Source: an uncultured Candidatus Saccharibacteria bacterium
GTDB taxonomy: Bacteria; Patescibacteriota; Saccharimonadia; Saccharimonadales; AWTP1-31
Direction of reading: 5' to 3'
DNA: 64,000 bases
Assembly (NCBI GenBank): GCA_964536985.1
Contig: CAZIBG010000001.1
Span: forward strand, 49,017 to 113,016
The position numbers and the translations under genes are program-made. Numbering within the stretch: the stretch's first letter is position 1; each line of letters begins with the position of its first letter. This document shows positions 39,699 through 54,863 of the stretch, in pieces. The notes below the pieces were generated by a model. It was not told where the DNA came from. It was given only the letters and a program-made list of their open reading frames with translations, and did not search any database.

Positions 39699-40262
39699 TT
39701 AGACGGTCATTATCTCTTGTTCTTTTGCTCGTGCAACGACCTCTGCCTGGCCTTTAGCTTTGTTGATTGCGTCTTCAACCTGTGAAGAGTAACGCTTTGC
39801 ATCATCTTCGCTAATGTCCTTATCTTTCTTTGCTGCATCAAAAGAATCTAGTGCATCATGTCGAATGCCCCTCATTCGGACCATGCATTCTTCTAACTTG
39901 GAGCCTACTTGCTTGCTGATTTCCCGGCGTCGATCTTCCGTGAGAGCCGGAATAGGGATTCTGACAACTCGTCCATCATCCGAAGGATTGAGTCCAAGAC
40001 TTTGATTATCTCGGATAGCACTGACAATTGCTTGCAGTGTACTAGGGTCAAATGGGCTGATTTGAATCAACTGTGCTTCTGGGGCAGTAACACTGGCAAC
40101 CTGATTTAGTGGTGTCGGAGATCCGTAGGCCTCTACCATGACACCGTCTAGCATTGCCGCACTGGCACGACCGGTACGTAGTTTCTTCAAATCATCTTCG
40201 AAATGTTTAACGGCATCATTCAACTTTGATATAGCTTGGTCAACAACTTGGGTGGGGCTCAC
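39699..40262 (-). CDS. frr: ribosome recycling factor
   Basis: LKKLRTGRASAAMLDGVMVEAYGSPTPLNQVA...VVRIPIPALTEDRRRE. Start reassigned to GTG at 40260-40262, which has AAGGAG 7 nt upstream. Confidence 0.9.
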   Translation of the reverse strand: MSPTQVVDQAISKLNDAVKHFEDDLKKLRTGRASAAMLDGVMVEAYGSPTPLNQVASVTAPEAQLIQISPFDPSTLQAIVSAIRDNQSLGLNPSDDGRVVRIPIPALTEDRRREISKQVGSKLEECMVRMRGIRHDALDSFDAAKKDKDISEDDAKRYSSQVEDAINKAKGQAEVVARAKEQEIMTV

Positions 40263-40328
40263 TCGATTACTCCTTATTTGGTACCTATAGTATACCATTC
40301 ATAACTCTTACTTTAACGCCCTAGATTT

Positions 40329-40357: not shown

Positions 40358-40498
40358 ATTACTTAGTAACCAGTCAGCAAGGACACATATCCCTTATTTG
40401 GTCGCTTGAGATATGTCGAGCTAATAGCGAACCCACGGCTGTTCCTCTTCCGAGAACACTGAGACAGGTACTAATCACTAATTTAATAAGGACCCGCT

Positions 40499-41224
40499 AT
40501 GTCCATAGCTATTGAGCGCCTGTCTGCTCCTGAGTTCTATCCCGAAGAATCTCGCCTACCGATTGAAGCTCCAGCTGAAGTACTGTCGATACCGTCAAAA
40601 TGGGAAGTCACTCGTCTTTTTGGCATGCTCATGATTGCACAATACTTTGAAGAGCGAGGCACATTTGATGGCACAATGCGTGTCATTGGAGCCGACGAGT
40701 ATGGCAATGCAATTGAAAGTCCAAATTACAAGATAGACACCATGGGGATTACCGAGCAGCAAAAGGAAGTCCACAATCAGATGCGTAGGGATGGGACATT
40801 TATTAAGGGCGTGCATGACAAGCGCACCAAGATTGGCCGGTTTTTAGCAGCCTTCCGTATTGATGAAATTCCGACAGCCATCATCTACCCACTCGCCGGG
40901 GTCCACAAATTCTATGGGAATACTCGCGCCCTTTTAGCCTCTGAGCTTGAATCGCCACAATTCTATACCGCTCTTGAACGAAGAGGCGCAACAAAAGAAC
41001 AGTTCCTGCGAAATATTCGGGTCGGCGTTGTAAACGTCACACAGGCATTTGGGGTTACAGAACTTACCACACAAGATGATTTTGAGACTCTCGTTATGTC
41101 AGTAATGCTCGACAAGAATGACCCGAACTACCCTTCAAAAACTCAAATGAATATCGGCACCGCTAAGGATATATTTTCTAAAATCGGACAAGAAATCCGT
41201 AAAGTCGCGCGTCGTGGTAAATAA
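40499..41224 (+). CDS. hypothetical protein (241 aa), opposite-strand insert between frr and tsf
   Basis: SD AAGGA 8 nt upstream. No TM, no P-loop, no motif I recognise. Confidence 0.4.
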   Translation: MSIAIERLSAPEFYPEESRLPIEAPAEVLSIPSKWEVTRLFGMLMIAQYFEERGTFDGTMRVIGADEYGNAIESPNYKIDTMGITEQQKEVHNQMRRDGTFIKGVHDKRTKIGRFLAAFRIDEIPTAIIYPLAGVHKFYGNTRALLASELESPQFYTALERRGATKEQFLRNIRVGVVNVTQAFGVTELTTQDDFETLVMSVMLDKNDPNYPSKTQMNIGTAKDIFSKIGQEIRKVARRGK

Positions 41225-50011: not shown

Positions 50012-53002
50012 TTAAGCCTTCTCAAGGCTAACGCACAACTCATGTCCCTCGACTTTGACCACCTCACTATAGGCATATTCCTTGGTACCGGTAGTAAGCG
50101 AAGTAGCTAACGTCTCGGCCGTAATGTCGTCCTTGAACGCTTCTACGGCCTCAAGAATAGCTTCCACGGATGACCCTAGATCAAGATTGATGCGATCATC
50201 AACATCAAGTCCTGCCTGCTTACGGGCATTCTGTACCTGACGCACGATCTCGCGCATCAACCCCTCTTGTTTCAATTCCGGAGTCAACTCCAGGTCCAAC
50301 TCGACTTTTATGTCGAGCGGGTTATAGCCAGTTTTGCCCTTTTCGATAACCTCACTAAAACTATCACTCGCCTCAACTTTGTATTTCGGAACAAACTCCA
50401 CACTCTTAACATTGAGTTCTTCAGCAATTATATCCGTAAGGTTATCCTGGTCAGACAAGCCAAAGACCTTCACACTCGAAAGAGGCTGACGAACTTTAAC
50501 CCCTGCCTCAGCACGCTTACTTAAGCCCTGATTTATAGCTTCGCGCACTTTAGCCATACTAGCCAGCGCCAACTCGTTGATATGACCGACTTTTGGCCAA
50601 TCGAGCAAGTGAACGGAATCGCCGCCTGTAAGCTTTTGGTGGAGCTCTTCGGCAAGGAATGGCGTAAATGGTGCCAGGATCATCGAAAGTTGCGTCAGCA
50701 CGTAGTGAAGCGTGCGATAGGCATCATCCTTATCCTGATTGTCTCCGCTCTTCCAGAAACGACGTCGGCTTCGGCGAACATACCAGTTGCTGGCGTCATC
50801 TATGAACGGCAATATCGGCTTCATAGCATTTGGTAAATCGTAACCATCCATATGCTTTTCAACCTCGGCGGTCAACTCATGAACACGACTTACAATCCAG
50901 GTGTCGAGTGGATTCCTGCAGAGTTCAGTTGGATCCTCATGTCTTTCATCCCACTCCCAACCATCTACTTCGGCATACATCGTAAAGAAATCGTACATAT
51001 TCCAGATCATAGACAGCTTACGAGCAACGTCACCAACTTCTTTGTCTTGAAGGGTAAAGTCTTCTCCGTTCAGTAGTGGGCTTGAGGCAAGTAAATATCG
51101 GAGGCTATCTGCAGAGAACTTATCCATCAGCTCGTTTGGATCAGTATAGTTACCGTAACTCTTGCTCATCTTACGTCCATCGCTACCAGCAACATTTCCT
51201 GTAACGATAACGTTCTTAAAGGAATTCTTTCCAAAGAGTGCGACGCTCATTGAGTGCATATAGTAGAACCAAGCACGGACTTGGCCGATGTATTCGACGA
51301 TGAAATCGCCAGGGAAATTAGCTTCGAACTTCTCTTTATTCTCGAATGGATAATGGAACTGTGCAAACGGCATACTGCCCGCTTCGAACCAACTATCCAT
51401 AACCTTGTCTATTCGCTGATACGTAACTCCGTCGATCTCGAAAGTGATGTCATCAACCCACGGTCGATGATAATCATTAAGCTCTTTGCCGGATAATTCC
51501 TTGAGCTCAGCATAGCTACCTACAACTTTGACGTGTTCAATACCGTCTTTGTCCGTTCCCTTCCAGACAGGCATTGCAGTTGCCCAGAAACGATCACGGG
51601 AAATGTTCCAATCAGGCGCTTGCTCTACAGTTTTGGCAAATCGACCCTTCTTAACATGGCTCGGGAACCACTCGATATTACCGTTCTCCTCAAGCATTGT
51701 TTCGCGTTGCGAAGCGATATCCATGAACCAGCTTGGGTGCGCCCGATACATAAGCCGAGTACCACAACGATGGCAGTGAGGATAACTGTGTCGGTAATAT
51801 TCGATCTTCCAAACAATTCCCCGCTCTTTCAGCTCTTTAGCGATTGGCTTATTAACTTCCCAGACGTTCTGCCCTAACCAGTCACCCTCGGTGTAGTCAC
51901 CGTTTGCGTCTAGGACATGGACAACAGGGATCTTCTTTTCCTGGGCCAATGCAAAATCTTCTTCGCCGTATGCTGGTGCCAGATGCACAATGCCCGTACC
52001 GCTTTCCGTAGTCACATAGTCAGCATCCCATATCTGATGAGCATTTTCACCGCGATCCTCAAAAAGTGGCACGTATGTTAGGCCTACTAAGTGCCTACCC
52101 TCAAGTGCACCCATTACTTCGGTTTTAAGCGGTTGATGTTTTTCGTCTGTAAATACTTTTGGCACTAGATCCTCTGCCACTACAAAGATCTGATCATCAC
52201 ACTTTACTACGAGATAAAGTAATTCATTGTTTACTGCTACTGCAGTGTTTGCAGGTAATGTCCATGGAGTGGTAGTCCAGGCAAGTAGATTCAAAGTTGA
52301 TTCGGCTGGGATCTTAAGTCCAGATCGCTCTTCAAGCTCTTTTTGTGACTCTTCATTTAGAGCAAAATTAACGTAAACACTTGGGTCGGTAACATCCTGA
52401 TAGGCGCCAGCATCCATGGTAACTTCTGCCTTACTAAGAGGAGTGGCGTCGAGCGTACAATACATAAGTACCTTTTCGCCTTCGTAGATTTTGCCTTTTT
52501 CATATAATTCTTTGAACGCCCACCAGACAGACTCCATGTAATCTTTGTCCATGGTTTTGTAGGCACCCTTAAAGTCCACCCAGCGACCGATACGATCTAC
52601 AGTATCTTCCCATTCACTACTGGTCTGAACCATGTTCTCTCGGCAAGCCACGATATACTTCTCTATTCCATATTCTAAAACCTCTTCGCGGCTATGGATT
52701 CCGAGCTTCTTCTCAGTAAATCGTTCGGCTGGCAGTCCGTGACAATCCCAACCCCAGACTCGTTCAACTCGCTTGCCTTTCATAGTCTGATAACGCGGCA
52801 CCACATCCTTAATGATTGAGCTCAGCAAAGTTCCGTGATGGGGAGAGCCACTAATGAATGGAGGGCCGTCGTAGAAAACATAGGCATTGCTTTTAGGTCG
52901 GTTCTCGACCGACTTCTCAAATGTCTTGTTCTTCTTCCATTGTTCGACGAGATCCTTCTCGTACTCTAGTGCTCGCCGCCGCGTTCCTGCTTTAAACTTC
53001 AT
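50012..53002 (-). CDS. ileS: isoleucine--tRNA ligase (long, type-2-like)
   Basis: HIGH-type box PHHGTLL, KMSKS, CP1 editing insert; 996 aa with no C-terminal Zn-finger cysteines. Confidence 0.95.
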   Translation of the reverse strand: MKFKAGTRRRALEYEKDLVEQWKKNKTFEKSVENRPKSNAYVFYDGPPFISGSPHHGTLLSSIIKDVVPRYQTMKGKRVERVWGWDCHGLPAERFTEKKLGIHSREEVLEYGIEKYIVACRENMVQTSSEWEDTVDRIGRWVDFKGAYKTMDKDYMESVWWAFKELYEKGKIYEGEKVLMYCTLDATPLSKAEVTMDAGAYQDVTDPSVYVNFALNEESQKELEERSGLKIPAESTLNLLAWTTTPWTLPANTAVAVNNELLYLVVKCDDQIFVVAEDLVPKVFTDEKHQPLKTEVMGALEGRHLVGLTYVPLFEDRGENAHQIWDADYVTTESGTGIVHLAPAYGEEDFALAQEKKIPVVHVLDANGDYTEGDWLGQNVWEVNKPIAKELKERGIVWKIEYYRHSYPHCHRCGTRLMYRAHPSWFMDIASQRETMLEENGNIEWFPSHVKKGRFAKTVEQAPDWNISRDRFWATAMPVWKGTDKDGIEHVKVVGSYAELKELSGKELNDYHRPWVDDITFEIDGVTYQRIDKVMDSWFEAGSMPFAQFHYPFENKEKFEANFPGDFIVEYIGQVRAWFYYMHSMSVALFGKNSFKNVIVTGNVAGSDGRKMSKSYGNYTDPNELMDKFSADSLRYLLASSPLLNGEDFTLQDKEVGDVARKLSMIWNMYDFFTMYAEVDGWEWDERHEDPTELCRNPLDTWIVSRVHELTAEVEKHMDGYDLPNAMKPILPFIDDASNWYVRRSRRRFWKSGDNQDKDDAYRTLHYVLTQLSMILAPFTPFLAEELHQKLTGGDSVHLLDWPKVGHINELALASMAKVREAINQGLSKRAEAGVKVRQPLSSVKVFGLSDQDNLTDIIAEELNVKSVEFVPKYKVEASDSFSEVIEKGKTGYNPLDIKVELDLELTPELKQEGLMREIVRQVQNARKQAGLDVDDRINLDLGSSVEAILEAVEAFKDDITAETLATSLTTGTKEYAYSEVVKVEGHELCVSLEKA

Positions 53003-53543
53003 GTTGTACTCCTGGCTTTACCATCTCTATTTCCATTAGCCCACCGCCAAAATCATGTTCAGTTCCTGGTTGCAGCTCAAAACCCAACTTCTCGTAAAAA
53101 TGTATTGCTCGCCCATTATTTACTGCCACGCCCAATAACGTATCACGGCCTGGATCAAGCCAGCCTTGTAGATCTTCGCCCAGTGCTGTTGCCACGCCGG
53201 ACCCCTGGAAGGATTTATCTAGGTAGAAGGCATGGAGCCGCTGCTCTTCCTGAGTCTTTGAGCCCGCCACAAACCCAACAGCCTTACCACTGCCGTCACG
53301 TGCGACCATGTAGTACCTATGTTCTGGGTCTTCAAGTGCAGCGGCGATATGTGACTTGTACCGCTCAATACCCTCCGGCGATTCTTTCGCTGCGGCATGT
53401 TCCTCCACCCATTCATCAGTGATACCCGGCTGTATACCAGGATACGTATCTCTCCAGCTTTGAGCGTGCATATGCGCCAAGTCTTCAGCGTCCTCTAGTT
53501 TTGGTCCGTCGATTGTCCATTGTTGTGGTGGCATTTCAGTCAT
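52992..53543 (-). CDS. GNAT family N-acetyltransferase
   Basis: Acetyl-CoA box FQGSGVATALGEDL; SD AAGGAG; 3' end overlaps the ileS start by 11 nt. Confidence 0.8.
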   Translation of the reverse strand: MTEMPPQQWTIDGPKLEDAEDLAHMHAQSWRDTYPGIQPGITDEWVEEHAAAKESPEGIERYKSHIAAALEDPEHRYYMVARDGSGKAVGFVAGSKTQEEQRLHAFYLDKSFQGSGVATALGEDLQGWLDPGRDTLLGVAVNNGRAIHFYEKLGFELQPGTEHDFGGGLMEIEMVKPGVQHEV

Positions 53544-53766
53544 CTTTTCTCCTTACGTTTTCTATAAAATAGAAAAATCCCTTTTTAGACACTGGAATCC
53601 GCGTGAGCGGACGGTACCATCCAGTTTCTAAAAAGGAATTCTTTTTAGCTCTTATTTATCGCTATTACGGGCTGCCCGGTCGGTTCTACTTGGAATTTCT
53701 CCCGTTCTATCGACTGCCTTCGTGGTTGATAGCCACTCATCTACTTAACGCAGAATGCATTTGTAA
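53544..53766 (-). promoter_or_regulatory. T-box riboswitch leader (tRNA-sensing), probable Ile specificity
   Basis: Minus strand has GAUGAG; hairpin GUGG[CUAUCAA]CCAC (53722-53736); a Stem-III-like hairpin (53628-53648); and discriminator ACUGGA[UGGUACC]GUCCGC-UCAC-GCGGAU-UCCAGU (53591-53625), followed by a U-rich tract and the SD. Confidence 0.75.
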
Positions 53767-53771
53767 TTTTT

Positions 53772-53800
53772 ACTATACCCCAATTAACACCTTATCTCAA
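53772..53800 (-). promoter_or_regulatory. promoter of the T-box leader, TTGAGA-17-TATAGT
   Basis: Reverse complement of 53795-53800 is TTGAGA and of 53772-53777 is TATAGT; exact 17-nt spacer. Confidence 0.55.
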
Positions 53801-53808
53801 GCGTAATA

Positions 53809-54075
53809 CTAATGGTCTTGTGTGTAGTAGGAGATCTCATTCATAAGTGGGAGTACCGGACCCTGCCACAAACGTAGCATCTGTCCGGCATTGTCGAGCG
53901 CCAGGATTGCCGGATATTGGGTGATGTCGTACATGGTGGCCGTTGCTGCACCATCCCTGGATTCCAGGCTGATCAGCTCTATTCTGTGGCCCGTTTGCAT
54001 CGAGAAATCACGAGCAAATCCTTCCACATTTGTGGCATGGTCCGACTTGGGATGGTAAAGGATAACCGCTTTCAT
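53809..54075 (-). CDS. small hypothetical protein, possibly thioredoxin-like fold without CxxC
   Basis: 88 aa with an alternating beta/alpha pattern (KAVILYHP...YPAILALDNAGQMLRLWQG). Weak, pattern-level only. Confidence 0.3.
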   Translation of the reverse strand: MKAVILYHPKSDHATNVEGFARDFSMQTGHRIELISLESRDGAATATMYDITQYPAILALDNAGQMLRLWQGPVLPLMNEISYYTQDH

Positions 54076-54107: not shown

Positions 54108-54863
54108 TTAGGCTACAAGAGCACTGATATTTTCTGCTTCGCGCTTAAGCACTTCGTCCACTTGCATATATCCGCCATCCACATTCATTGTTATCCCCGA
54201 CACAAAGCTAGCCGCAGACGAAAGAAGAAAACTAACGACACTAGCAATCTCTGCCGGTTCTGCATTTCTGCCCAAAGGAGTCTTTGCTACTGCTTCAGCA
54301 GTTACCCCGCTCGCCTCAGTGCCCATGGCCGTGTTAACCCAACCTGGGGCGACGGCATTTACTCGGATATTTCTATGCCCCAGTTGGACGGCCAAACTTT
54401 TTACAAAGCTATCAAGGGCTGCTTTACTAGCCGCATAAGTTGTACTGGCGTAGCCGCCAGTTTGGGCATCGGTACTGGTAACTACCACCACTGCACCACC
54501 GTCATTAATCATGCTAGAAAGTCTGCCAATTAAGTACATTGGCACCAGGGCGTTCACCCTAAAAGCCCACTCCAACTTACTCGCATCAACAGTACTCATA
54601 TCTTCTTCTTGAAATATACCGGCATTTTGAACAATGGCATCAAACCGATTACCTGAAAGGTCAGTCAGTAGGTTATCCACCTGCTTATAGTCGCCAAGAT
54701 CGCACTCATGGATCTGATAGCCCTTAGACTGGGCAAGATCCTCTGCGGCGCAACAATTCGGGCTATGTAATCCGTAGATCTCATAGCCCTGTTCATGGAG
54801 ATTCTCGGCAATAGCACGGCCGATACCCCTACATATTCCCGTTACCAATGCTTTCTTTTGCAT
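54108..54863 (-). CDS. short-chain dehydrogenase/reductase (SDR)
   Basis: TGICRGIGRAIA cofactor motif, NAG, catalytic YAASKAAL. Confidence 0.85.
   Translation of the reverse strand: MQKKALVTGICRGIGRAIAENLHEQGYEIYGLHSPNCCAAEDLAQSKGYQIHECDLGDYKQVDNLLTDLSGNRFDAIVQNAGIFQEEDMSTVDASKLEWAFRVNALVPMYLIGRLSSMINDGGAVVVVTSTDAQTGGYASTTYAASKAALDSFVKSLAVQLGHRNIRVNAVAPGWVNTAMGTEASGVTAEAVAKTPLGRNAEPAEIASVVSFLLSSAASFVSGITMNVDGGYMQVDEVLKREAENISALVA

Follow-up and report, generated by a model that had tools for sequence, protein, structure and literature searches.

The survey of a 64-kb stretch of contig CAZIBG010000001.1 (64,000 nucleotides, positions 1-64000, hereafter the window) revealed, upstream of an operon composed of a GNAT acetyltransferase gene and ileS, a leader RNA of about 195 nt (53768-53573, minus strand) that leaves hardly any doubt as to its identity as a T-box, i.e., a tRNA-sensing riboswitch. 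Judging by its sequence and by that of its relatives, this isoleucine-specific T-box probably controls GNAT-ileS by transcription attenuation, a terminator helix capturing Stem III. The leader lies in a 265-bp gap between an 88-aa open reading frame (ORF), which ends at 53809, and the GNAT gene (ATG at 53543). An earlier reading of the same DNA, hereafter the original prediction, had placed a T-box on the minus strand of this gap; the T-box strings are indeed on that strand, and all the sequence strings that it listed were recovered at their positions. Its T-box is now supported by a match to the Rfam family and by covariation in 65 leaders, while the switch itself turned out to be built differently from what had been proposed.

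Identity and distribution of the T-box

The leader aligns end to end with the T-box family of Rfam (RF00230, model positions 1-219, at 53764-53590) with 35.6 bits against a gathering score of 93, the E-value of this match being significant both in a local search (2.1e-6) and over the whole window (3e-4). It also folds better than all 200 shuffled sequences (z = -4.05), in agreement with the structured leader that had been proposed. At gathering thresholds, Rfam calls no T-box in the window nor in 10 orthologous loci, and the E-value mode is needed to retrieve it; since all 10 orthologous leaders are missed in this manner, standard annotation overlooks the whole family.

The 996-aa protein encoded downstream was identified as IleS (Pfam tRNA-synt_1, 4e-119, and Anticodon_1). 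Its best 80 relatives among one-per-species genomes, which form the basis of the locus counts given here, all come from Saccharibacteria/Saccharimonadia metagenome-assembled genomes and share 65% to 84% identity with it. The window therefore comes from a genome within the candidate phyla radiation (CPR; TM7), as the original prediction had considered, and its host is, on this protein evidence, a member of the Saccharibacteria (TM7/CPR).

In a first motif search, a TGGNACC regular expression located the bulge upstream of ileS in 73 of the 80 loci; bulge variants with AAC or AUC escape this expression. The 80 ileS loci (1.1 Mb) and the window were also scanned with R1, a covariance model of the 3' domain of the leader. 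R1 detected exactly one copy in 79 of the 80 loci and in the window (86.1 bits), always upstream of ileS and on the same strand, with E-values from 1e-5 to 1e-20 in the loci, and no further copies elsewhere in the 1.1 Mb. The single negative locus has only 547 nt of upstream sequence. Five leaders missed by the regular expression and recovered by R1 carry UGGUAAC (L009, L052, L062 and L069) or UGGUAUC (L044). As far as these matches can tell, the T-box is kept in nearly all Saccharibacteria examined, once per locus, ahead of ileS.

Pairing and covariation were scored on an alignment of 65 leaders from species-level genomes (MAFFT), leaving aside the upper helix of Stem II and the pairing at the base of Stem I, for which the MAFFT registers differ between subgroups. 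On this alignment, 93% of the cells of the T-box secondary structure are paired and 28 of its 34 pairs show compensatory changes. None of 500 shuffles reached this pairing level, and slid controls gave 33-48%.

No report associating a T-box with Saccharibacteria, Patescibacteria, CPR or TM7 was found in the literature. No T-boxes outside Firmicutes, Actinobacteria, Chloroflexi, Deinococcus-Thermus and two deltaproteobacteria were listed in the 2008 survey, and the short-Stem-I model of TBDB was run on Actinobacteria only.

Architecture of the leader

The elements of the leader, read on the minus strand in transcription order, are as follows.

53772-53800, minus strand: candidate sigma-70-type promoter, TTGAGA (53800-53795), 17-nt spacer, TATAGT (53777-53772)
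53715-53759, minus strand: ultrashort Stem I, with basal pairing UGC (53759-57)/GCA (53717-15) and a small inserted 5' hairpin, from the Rfam alignment
53722-53736, minus strand: specifier hairpin GUGG[CUAUCAA]CCAC, with AUC at 53730-53728 (loop positions 3-5), then the purine A
53679-53714, minus strand: Stem II, with base GUCG/CGAC, S-turn AUAGAA opposite AGUAGAA (53690-53684) and upper helix GGGA/UUCC
53661-53678, minus strand: Stem IIA hairpin CGGG-CAG-CCCG, F-box-like CCGUAA and partner region of the IIB pseudoknot (UAGC)
53649-53653, minus strand: linker purine string AAGAG (RRRxG or 'GAG' motif), 5' of Stem III
53628-53648, minus strand: Stem III, CUAAAAAG (53648-41), loop AAUUC (53640-36) and CUUUUUAG (53635-28), then AA (53627-26)
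53591-53625, minus strand: antiterminator-like element, with helix A1 ACUGGA/UCCAGU, bulge UGGUACC (53619-53613), helix A2 GUCCGC/GCGGAU and loop UCAC
53573-53641, minus strand: predicted OFF-state terminator hairpin, in which GAAUUCCUUUUUAGA (53641-53627) pairs with UCUAAAAAGGGAUUU (53589-53575) and encloses an intact A1-bulge-A2

With regard to the promoter, both hexamers named in the original prediction are present, but a consensus scan gave one match against 1.6 expected, which is not significant alone and at chance level. A -10-like hexamer recurs 20-55 nt upstream of the specifier hairpin in 77 of 77 orthologous leaders, and lends the candidate promoter moderate support. The string TATAGTAAAAATTACAAATGC of this region is kept in the closest relatives (L001-L003).

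Stem I is very short, as had been anticipated. In the Rfam alignment its base is paired, and 54 of the 89 internal model positions of Stem I are deleted. The leader has no long Stem I whose distal platform (IDTM) would stack on the tRNA elbow; the hairpin ends in the specifier loop. The lack of this platform is also what sets the actinobacterial subclass apart (PMC7583486). Two GA dinucleotides (53738-37 and 53721-20) flank the 4-bp helix in a K-turn-like arrangement. In the 5' GA, the A is invariant and the G varies (G, A or U), and in the 3' GA the A is at least 90% kept; the alignment of the basal C-stem is unreliable. The specifier hairpin, one of the elements of the original prediction, is 100% paired and shows compensatory changes at four of its four pairs (e.g., UA:34/CG:29), while AUC is invariant in the alignment. 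Its 7-nt loop resembles an anticodon loop.

The base of Stem II, a region that aligns to Stem II of RF00230, is 94% paired with compensatory changes at all five pairs scored (5/5), and the S-turn strings GAAGAA and AGUAGA are at least 90% conserved. Stem IIA is 93% paired. The F-box reads CGUAA in the window, and CGUNA is invariant or near-invariant across leaders. The IIB pseudoknot is 63% paired, a figure limited by the alignment, with compensatory changes at four of four pairs. An ACGGG...CCCGU helix, included in the original prediction, was rejected: 41% of its cells are paired, which is no better than shuffles, and its bases belong to the upper Stem II and to Stem IIA, elements that covary.

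The linker motif preceding Stem III is known as RRRxG or 'GAG' (PMC7583486, PMC12647780). In a sub-alignment, A3, G4, G6 and C7 are at least 90% conserved, and AAGxGC precedes Stem III. The 8-bp hairpin noticed at the Stem III position (53648-53628) is 92-99% paired, with compensatory changes in six of its eight pairs and an invariant G-A-A after the stem. In the antiterminator-like element, A1 (100% paired) and A2 (98.5%) covary, and the UGG and ACC of the bulge do not vary in any of the 65 aligned leaders. The conservation of bulge and helices in orthologous leaders, on which the original prediction had staked its case, is thus borne out. The closing pair of A2 is G-U in the window. Taken together, these sequence features strongly support a leader complete in the tRNA-binding apparatus of a T-box.

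Some leaders depart from this layout. That of L010 (5753-5974) has the discriminator and the terminator and no recognisable AUC specifier hairpin or Stem I. An extra hairpin of about 40 nt lies between the linker and Stem III in L010, L024, L033 and L075, and a large insertion is present within Stem II in L032.

Specificity for isoleucine

AUC followed by A stands in the 7-nt apical loop of 78 of the 79 leaders, the exception being L010; CUAUCAA, CUAUCAC and UUAUCAG are the commonest loops. The bulge reads UGGU in 72 of the 79, with UGGA in three (L014, L020 and L061), UGGC in three (L027, L068 and L079) and UGGG in one (L065).

ARAGORN found no tRNA-Ile in the window nor in the 80 ileS loci. 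The tRNA was hence sampled with ARAGORN in the rRNA spacer of metagenome contigs carrying the 24-nt 16S primer signature TM7-1177R, which is a published Saccharibacteria primer. A tRNA-Ile(GAU) is present in the 16S-adjoining spacer of 38 such contigs, with A73 in 38 of 38, which is the discriminator base expected in the original prediction. Of these tRNAs, 34 encode ACCA; in the other four, the ARAGORN call is one base longer and A73 was read by hand. Their anticodon loop is CUGAUAA. A tblastn search of the window proteins against the TM7-signature contigs had no bearing on their Saccharibacteria origin, the two covering different genomic regions.

The spacer of TM7 type (contigs L081-L160) contains tRNA-Ala(UGC) and tRNA-Ile(GAU) in either order, about ten contigs having tRNA-Val(UAC) in addition. 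Several of these contigs have their tRNAs on the strand opposite to the 16S signature or kilobases away from it, pointing to rearranged or interrupted rRNA operons.

A pairing scheme in which AUC-A is presented to the GAU anticodon and UGGU pairs with the ACCA-3' end of tRNA-Ile (A73) is strongly supported by these sequences. With the constant presence of ileS downstream, the tRNA-Ile sensing put forward in the original prediction stands, and we hold the T-box to be Ile-specific with high confidence.

A proposed expression platform built on Stem III

The original prediction described the A1-bulge-A2 element as a textbook antiterminator. The two helices and the UGGUACC bulge are present as described; the competing terminator is not the textbook one, and the outer helix and its U-run had gone unnoticed. 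The strand GAAUUCCUUUUUAGA comprises the final base of the 5' strand of Stem III, then the loop and the 3' strand of this stem, and lastly the first A of the linker. The resulting outer helix of about 15 bp runs into UUUUUCUAUUUU; the U-tract UUUUU (53577-53573) is followed by CUAUUUU, and an upstream A-rich segment is able to pair with the U-run. The entire hairpin is about 65 nt long and has a structured apical element with a 7-nt bulge. A stable hairpin directly followed by a U-run is what defines an intrinsic terminator in a sequence, and termination here is a prediction.

The outer helix is present in the minimum free energy (MFE) structure of the leader. In 63 of the 65 leaders, its topology is that of the MFE structure, with a median of 16 outer pairs, and in 63 of the 65 it ends at or inside a run of at least four U. 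The outer-helix form has a mean energy of -33.4 kcal/mol versus -20.6 kcal/mol for Stem III with the antiterminator, i.e., a gap of 12.8 kcal/mol. The helix covaries (e.g., CG:29/UA:24, CG:29/UA:28 and AU:24/GC:18/GU:12), and RNAalifold predicts it without guidance, with 19 of 26 pairs compensatory and a covariation term of -6.8 kcal/mol. The 3' strand of Stem III (alignment columns 201-208) has therefore two conserved, mutually exclusive partners. We consider it very probable that this alternative pairing is a real, selected feature, and fairly likely, from its sequence, that it acts as a tRNA-controlled transcription terminator.

Neither of the established platforms was detected in the leaders. 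The stretch that runs from the 3' strand of A2 up to the U-run, in which a canonical terminator would form, folds at a mean of only -3.4 kcal/mol, and one leader of 65 reaches -8. No alternative helix sequestering the Shine-Dalgarno (SD) sequence was found; the SD lies a median of 9 nt past the U-run, outside the switching helix. In the window, the SD and the GNAT ATG are 3' of the U-tract and outside this helix, and the SD is unpaired in the MFE structure of the leader.

Proposed mechanism and alternative explanations

The tRNA 3' end cannot be bound without Stem III (PMC7583486). In the ileS T-box of Mycobacterium tuberculosis (Mtb), the linker is flexible and Stem III leaves the antisequestrator when the tRNA is charged, whereas Stem III stays coaxially stacked when the tRNA is uncharged (PMC12647780). 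A terminator competing for a Stem III strand would read out exactly this difference. We can propose that Stem III and A1/A2, transcribed first, would form the discriminator, on which uncharged tRNA-Ile would dock by pairing of AUC with GAU and of UGGU in the bulge with the 3' end ACCA. Stem III and the flanking purines would then latch onto the tRNA-bulge duplex and Stem III would be held shut; protected in this ON state, it would let RNA polymerase read through into GNAT-ileS. With charged or absent tRNA, Stem III would be unlatched. In this OFF state, UCUAAAAAGGGAUUU would zip up from the foot of A1, branch-migrate and displace the Stem III 5' strand, and the helix of about 15 bp, with A1-bulge-A2 at its tip and the U-run, would form an intrinsic terminator. 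The readout of the switch would lie in Stem III, and not in the melting of A1/A2. As in the ileS T-boxes of Actinobacteria, the Stem II S-turn and the IIA/B pseudoknot very probably take the place of the missing elbow platform.

Other roles for the outer helix are unlikely. It could be a constitutive clamp, a stability or processing element or a fixed partial attenuator, regulation being exerted otherwise. Such a helix leaves the tRNA 3'-end binding site intact by itself, the A1-bulge-A2 element is the same in both states, and the connection of the helix with the tRNA is inferred; against this, the outer helix and Stem III compete for one strand and both covary, to no purpose if Stem III never formed, and no other switch-like alternative structure was found in the leaders. 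A translational T-box, in which tRNA-Ile binding would control whether the ribosome can reach the SD and the U-run would be incidental, appears slightly more doubtful still. The type of decoding module (ultrashort Stem I, Stem II, IIA/B) is mostly tied to translational control in the literature, the Stem III loop and 3' strand of the window (UUCCUU) could pair with AAGGAG, and in a crude scan the SD was at least half paired in some local MFE structure in 20 of 57 leaders. However, this complementarity is missing in other subgroups (e.g., CUUCUUUUGG), in virtually every leader the U-run comes directly after the outer helix, the SD falls beyond the conserved switching helix, and many loci have another gene, with another SD, behind the leader.

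The remaining explanations are far less probable. A canonical T-box, whose A1/A2 3' strands would pair downstream to form the terminator as in all characterised transcriptional T-boxes, is very improbable in view of the weak folding of that segment, and it is the Stem III strand, rather than A1/A2, to which the sequence adjoining the U-run is complementary. We regard as equally improbable the sensing of a tRNA other than tRNA-Ile(GAU), through UCA (Ser) or another triplet of CUAUCAA. The A that comes after AUC hardly varies, so that UCA is almost as well conserved as AUC itself, but the rule of a specifier with a 3' purine fits AUC-A, the base after UCA being variable; moreover, ileS is always the controlled gene and UGGU matches A73 of tRNA-Ile. 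Bacterial tRNA-Ser has G73. A chance resemblance, the gap being an ordinary promoter region or coding for the 67-aa ORF of the opposite strand (53603-53806, from the ORF list), which overlaps the conserved RNA, could draw on the Rfam score under gathering and on that ORF; it is effectively excluded by the covariation in seven helices across 65 species-level genomes and by the R1 matches in nearly every locus.

Several points nevertheless weigh against an isoleucine-specific attenuator based on Stem III capture. The gathering score of RF00230 is far above the score observed. In seven of the 79 leaders, the variable base of the bulge would mismatch A73, and the A73 sample includes the tRNA neither of the window genome nor of these seven variant-bulge genomes; its contigs are assigned to the phylum by the 24-nt signature alone. 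Only about 2 bp of the IIB pseudoknot can form in the window. A simple terminator scan does not call the hairpin, its apical part being over the loop limit and the stem adjacent to the U-run A/U-rich. Binding, termination and readthrough are all inferred. As A1-bulge-A2 persists in the OFF state, the model rests wholly on discrimination by Stem III, a role that would be new among T-box expression platforms. Finally, an ultrashort Stem I in a purely kinetic transcriptional switch may be inefficient, since transcriptional T-boxes are said to need a long Stem I.

Operon and genomic context

The genes that follow the leader are listed below.

50012-53543, minus strand: predicted regulated operon, GNAT acetyltransferase and ileS
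53541-53554, minus strand: SD sequence AAGGAG (53554-53549) and GNAT ATG (53543-53541), from the ORF list and the sequence
52992-53543, minus strand: GNAT acetyltransferase, 183 aa, Pfam Acetyltransf_1 (1.6e-13)
50012-53002, minus strand: ileS, 996 aa, identified with Pfam

The two genes overlap by 11 nt and are therefore co-transcribed. The GNAT protein scores under every curated NCBIfam cut-off, and no specific subfamily can be assigned to it; the idea of an aminoacyl-tRNA acetyltransferase was considered, and no evidence for it was found. The original prediction presented GNAT-ileS as the regulated operon, of which ileS always follows the T-box. In most loci, no gene lies between the T-box and the ileS start, the distance being 62-130 nt, and about 30 loci hold one or two further genes at this place; a related GNAT recurs between T-box and ileS in at least eight loci. 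Since the genes in this slot vary across loci, the GNAT is, from this comparison, an optional passenger rather than a fixed part of the regulon.

The passenger slot, from the T-box terminator to ileS, is a hotspot, and many inserted genes overlap the ileS start; such passengers would all fall under isoleucine-starvation control. Loci with passengers include L003, L014, L018, L022, L027, L035, L039, L046, L049, L057-L061, L065, L067 and L075-L077, in addition to the window (52992-53543). The inserted genes resemble CYTH-like and cupin-like proteins, Tag (DNA-3-methyladenine glycosylase I), SGNH hydrolase, CAP/SCP, SDR, NUDIX and HAD proteins, and small acidic proteins; these labels come from a reading of the sequences by eye, family libraries having been applied to the window GNAT alone. 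A 251-aa short-chain dehydrogenase (SDR) is encoded in the window two genes upstream of the T-box (54108-54863, minus strand), and an SDR of equal length (251 aa) occupies the passenger slot of L049 (5249-6004).

Elsewhere in the 64 kb, ARAGORN detected no tRNA gene, and no Rfam family reached its gathering score. A sub-threshold yet statistically significant match to the cyclic di-GMP-II riboswitch aptamer (RF01786) was observed at 40369-40443 on the plus strand, with 36.9 bits versus a gathering score of 53.5 and an E-value of 2.7e-4 for the window; it covers model positions 1-84, the outer stem being partly missing. This match sits between frr (39699-40298, minus strand) and a 241-aa ORF, to which no function is assigned, starting at 40499 on the plus strand.

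Significance

CPR/Patescibacteria have minimal genomes, lack amino-acid synthesis and depend on a host. The leader described here would extend tRNA-sensing riboswitches to this group, and a sensor of isoleucine starvation placed on the sole IleRS gene would be a rare concrete regulatory circuit in CPR. The family also provides a natural test of two generalisations on T-boxes, namely that transcriptional control requires a long Stem I and elbow contact and that switching occurs by melting of A1/A2; if the model is true, a transcriptional T-box can work without contact to the tRNA elbow. A terminator competing for Stem III agrees with recent single-molecule evidence, according to which the step that depends on charging is the docking of Stem III, and the Saccharibacteria leader would give a simple system for studying this docking. 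In a more applied perspective, this compact leader (about 195 nt) could become a native, tRNA-responsive control element in the genetic tools under development for Saccharibacteria. Actinobacteria are the usual hosts of Saccharibacteria, and the resemblance between the decoding modules of the two groups raises the question of shared ancestry or transfer.

Comparison with known T-boxes

The ileS T-boxes of Actinobacteria (TBDB 'class II'; M. tuberculosis and M. smegmatis), a class compared here through reviews and later papers, are the nearest in decoding. They share with the present family the gene ileS and the specifier AUC, a Stem I reduced to the K-turn region, here a putative one, and a short hairpin, with the specifier in the apical loop and no elbow platform, as well as the Stem II S-turn, IIA/B pseudoknot, F-box, GAG/RAG linker, Stem III and a UGGN bulge that separates A1 from A2. 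In these actinobacterial T-boxes, an alternative helix sequesters the SD (PMC1262725, PMC7583486). Their antisequestrator is opposed to an SD-sequestering hairpin, whereas here the SD is outside the switch and a U-run comes after the alternative helix; theirs involves the A1/A2 3' strands, whereas here the alternative helix uses a Stem III strand. The present leaders further differ by their CPR phylum, by being A/U-rich and by a divergence too large for the Rfam threshold.

With the transcriptional T-boxes of Firmicutes (RF00230; B. subtilis tyrS, glyQS and ileS), the family has in common tRNA-directed attenuation, here predicted, with a terminator hairpin and U-run, as well as Stem III, A1, the 7-nt UGGNACC bulge, A2, the G-U closing pair (in the window) and the specifier-plus-purine rule. 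In the transcriptional T-boxes characterised so far, the terminator takes its 5' strand from the 3' strands of A1/A2 (PMC7583486, PMC10907184), and a long Stem I is generally needed, an ultrashort one going with translational control (PMC7583486). In contrast to the Firmicutes leaders, with their long Stem I, distal platform and A1/A2-strand terminator, the present ones have an ultrashort Stem I, keep A1/A2 in the terminator form and exchange strands through Stem III. The Saccharibacteria family would thus be an exception to the long-Stem-I rule for transcriptional T-boxes.

A terminator type with a short Stem I may already exist in Actinobacteria, of which many leaders, reportedly not all, are translational. 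Like strand-invasion riboswitch platforms and intrinsic terminators, the present one consists of a hairpin and a U-run, with one strand contested by two helices; unlike usual intrinsic terminators, its hairpin reaches about 65 nt and carries the bulged apical element. The literature search for a Stem III-based terminator found no precedent. By its sequence, the expression platform would match neither known type and would combine a decoding module of actinobacterial type with a terminator of unprecedented topology. On balance, we lean, if only slightly, towards a third T-box platform, in which the terminator captures the 3' strand of Stem III with A1/A2 intact and charging is read via Stem III docking alone, carried by an ultrashort-Stem-I transcriptional T-box without elbow contact, in what would be the first CPR T-box family, near-universal, confined to ileS and recruiting passenger genes under isoleucine-starvation control.

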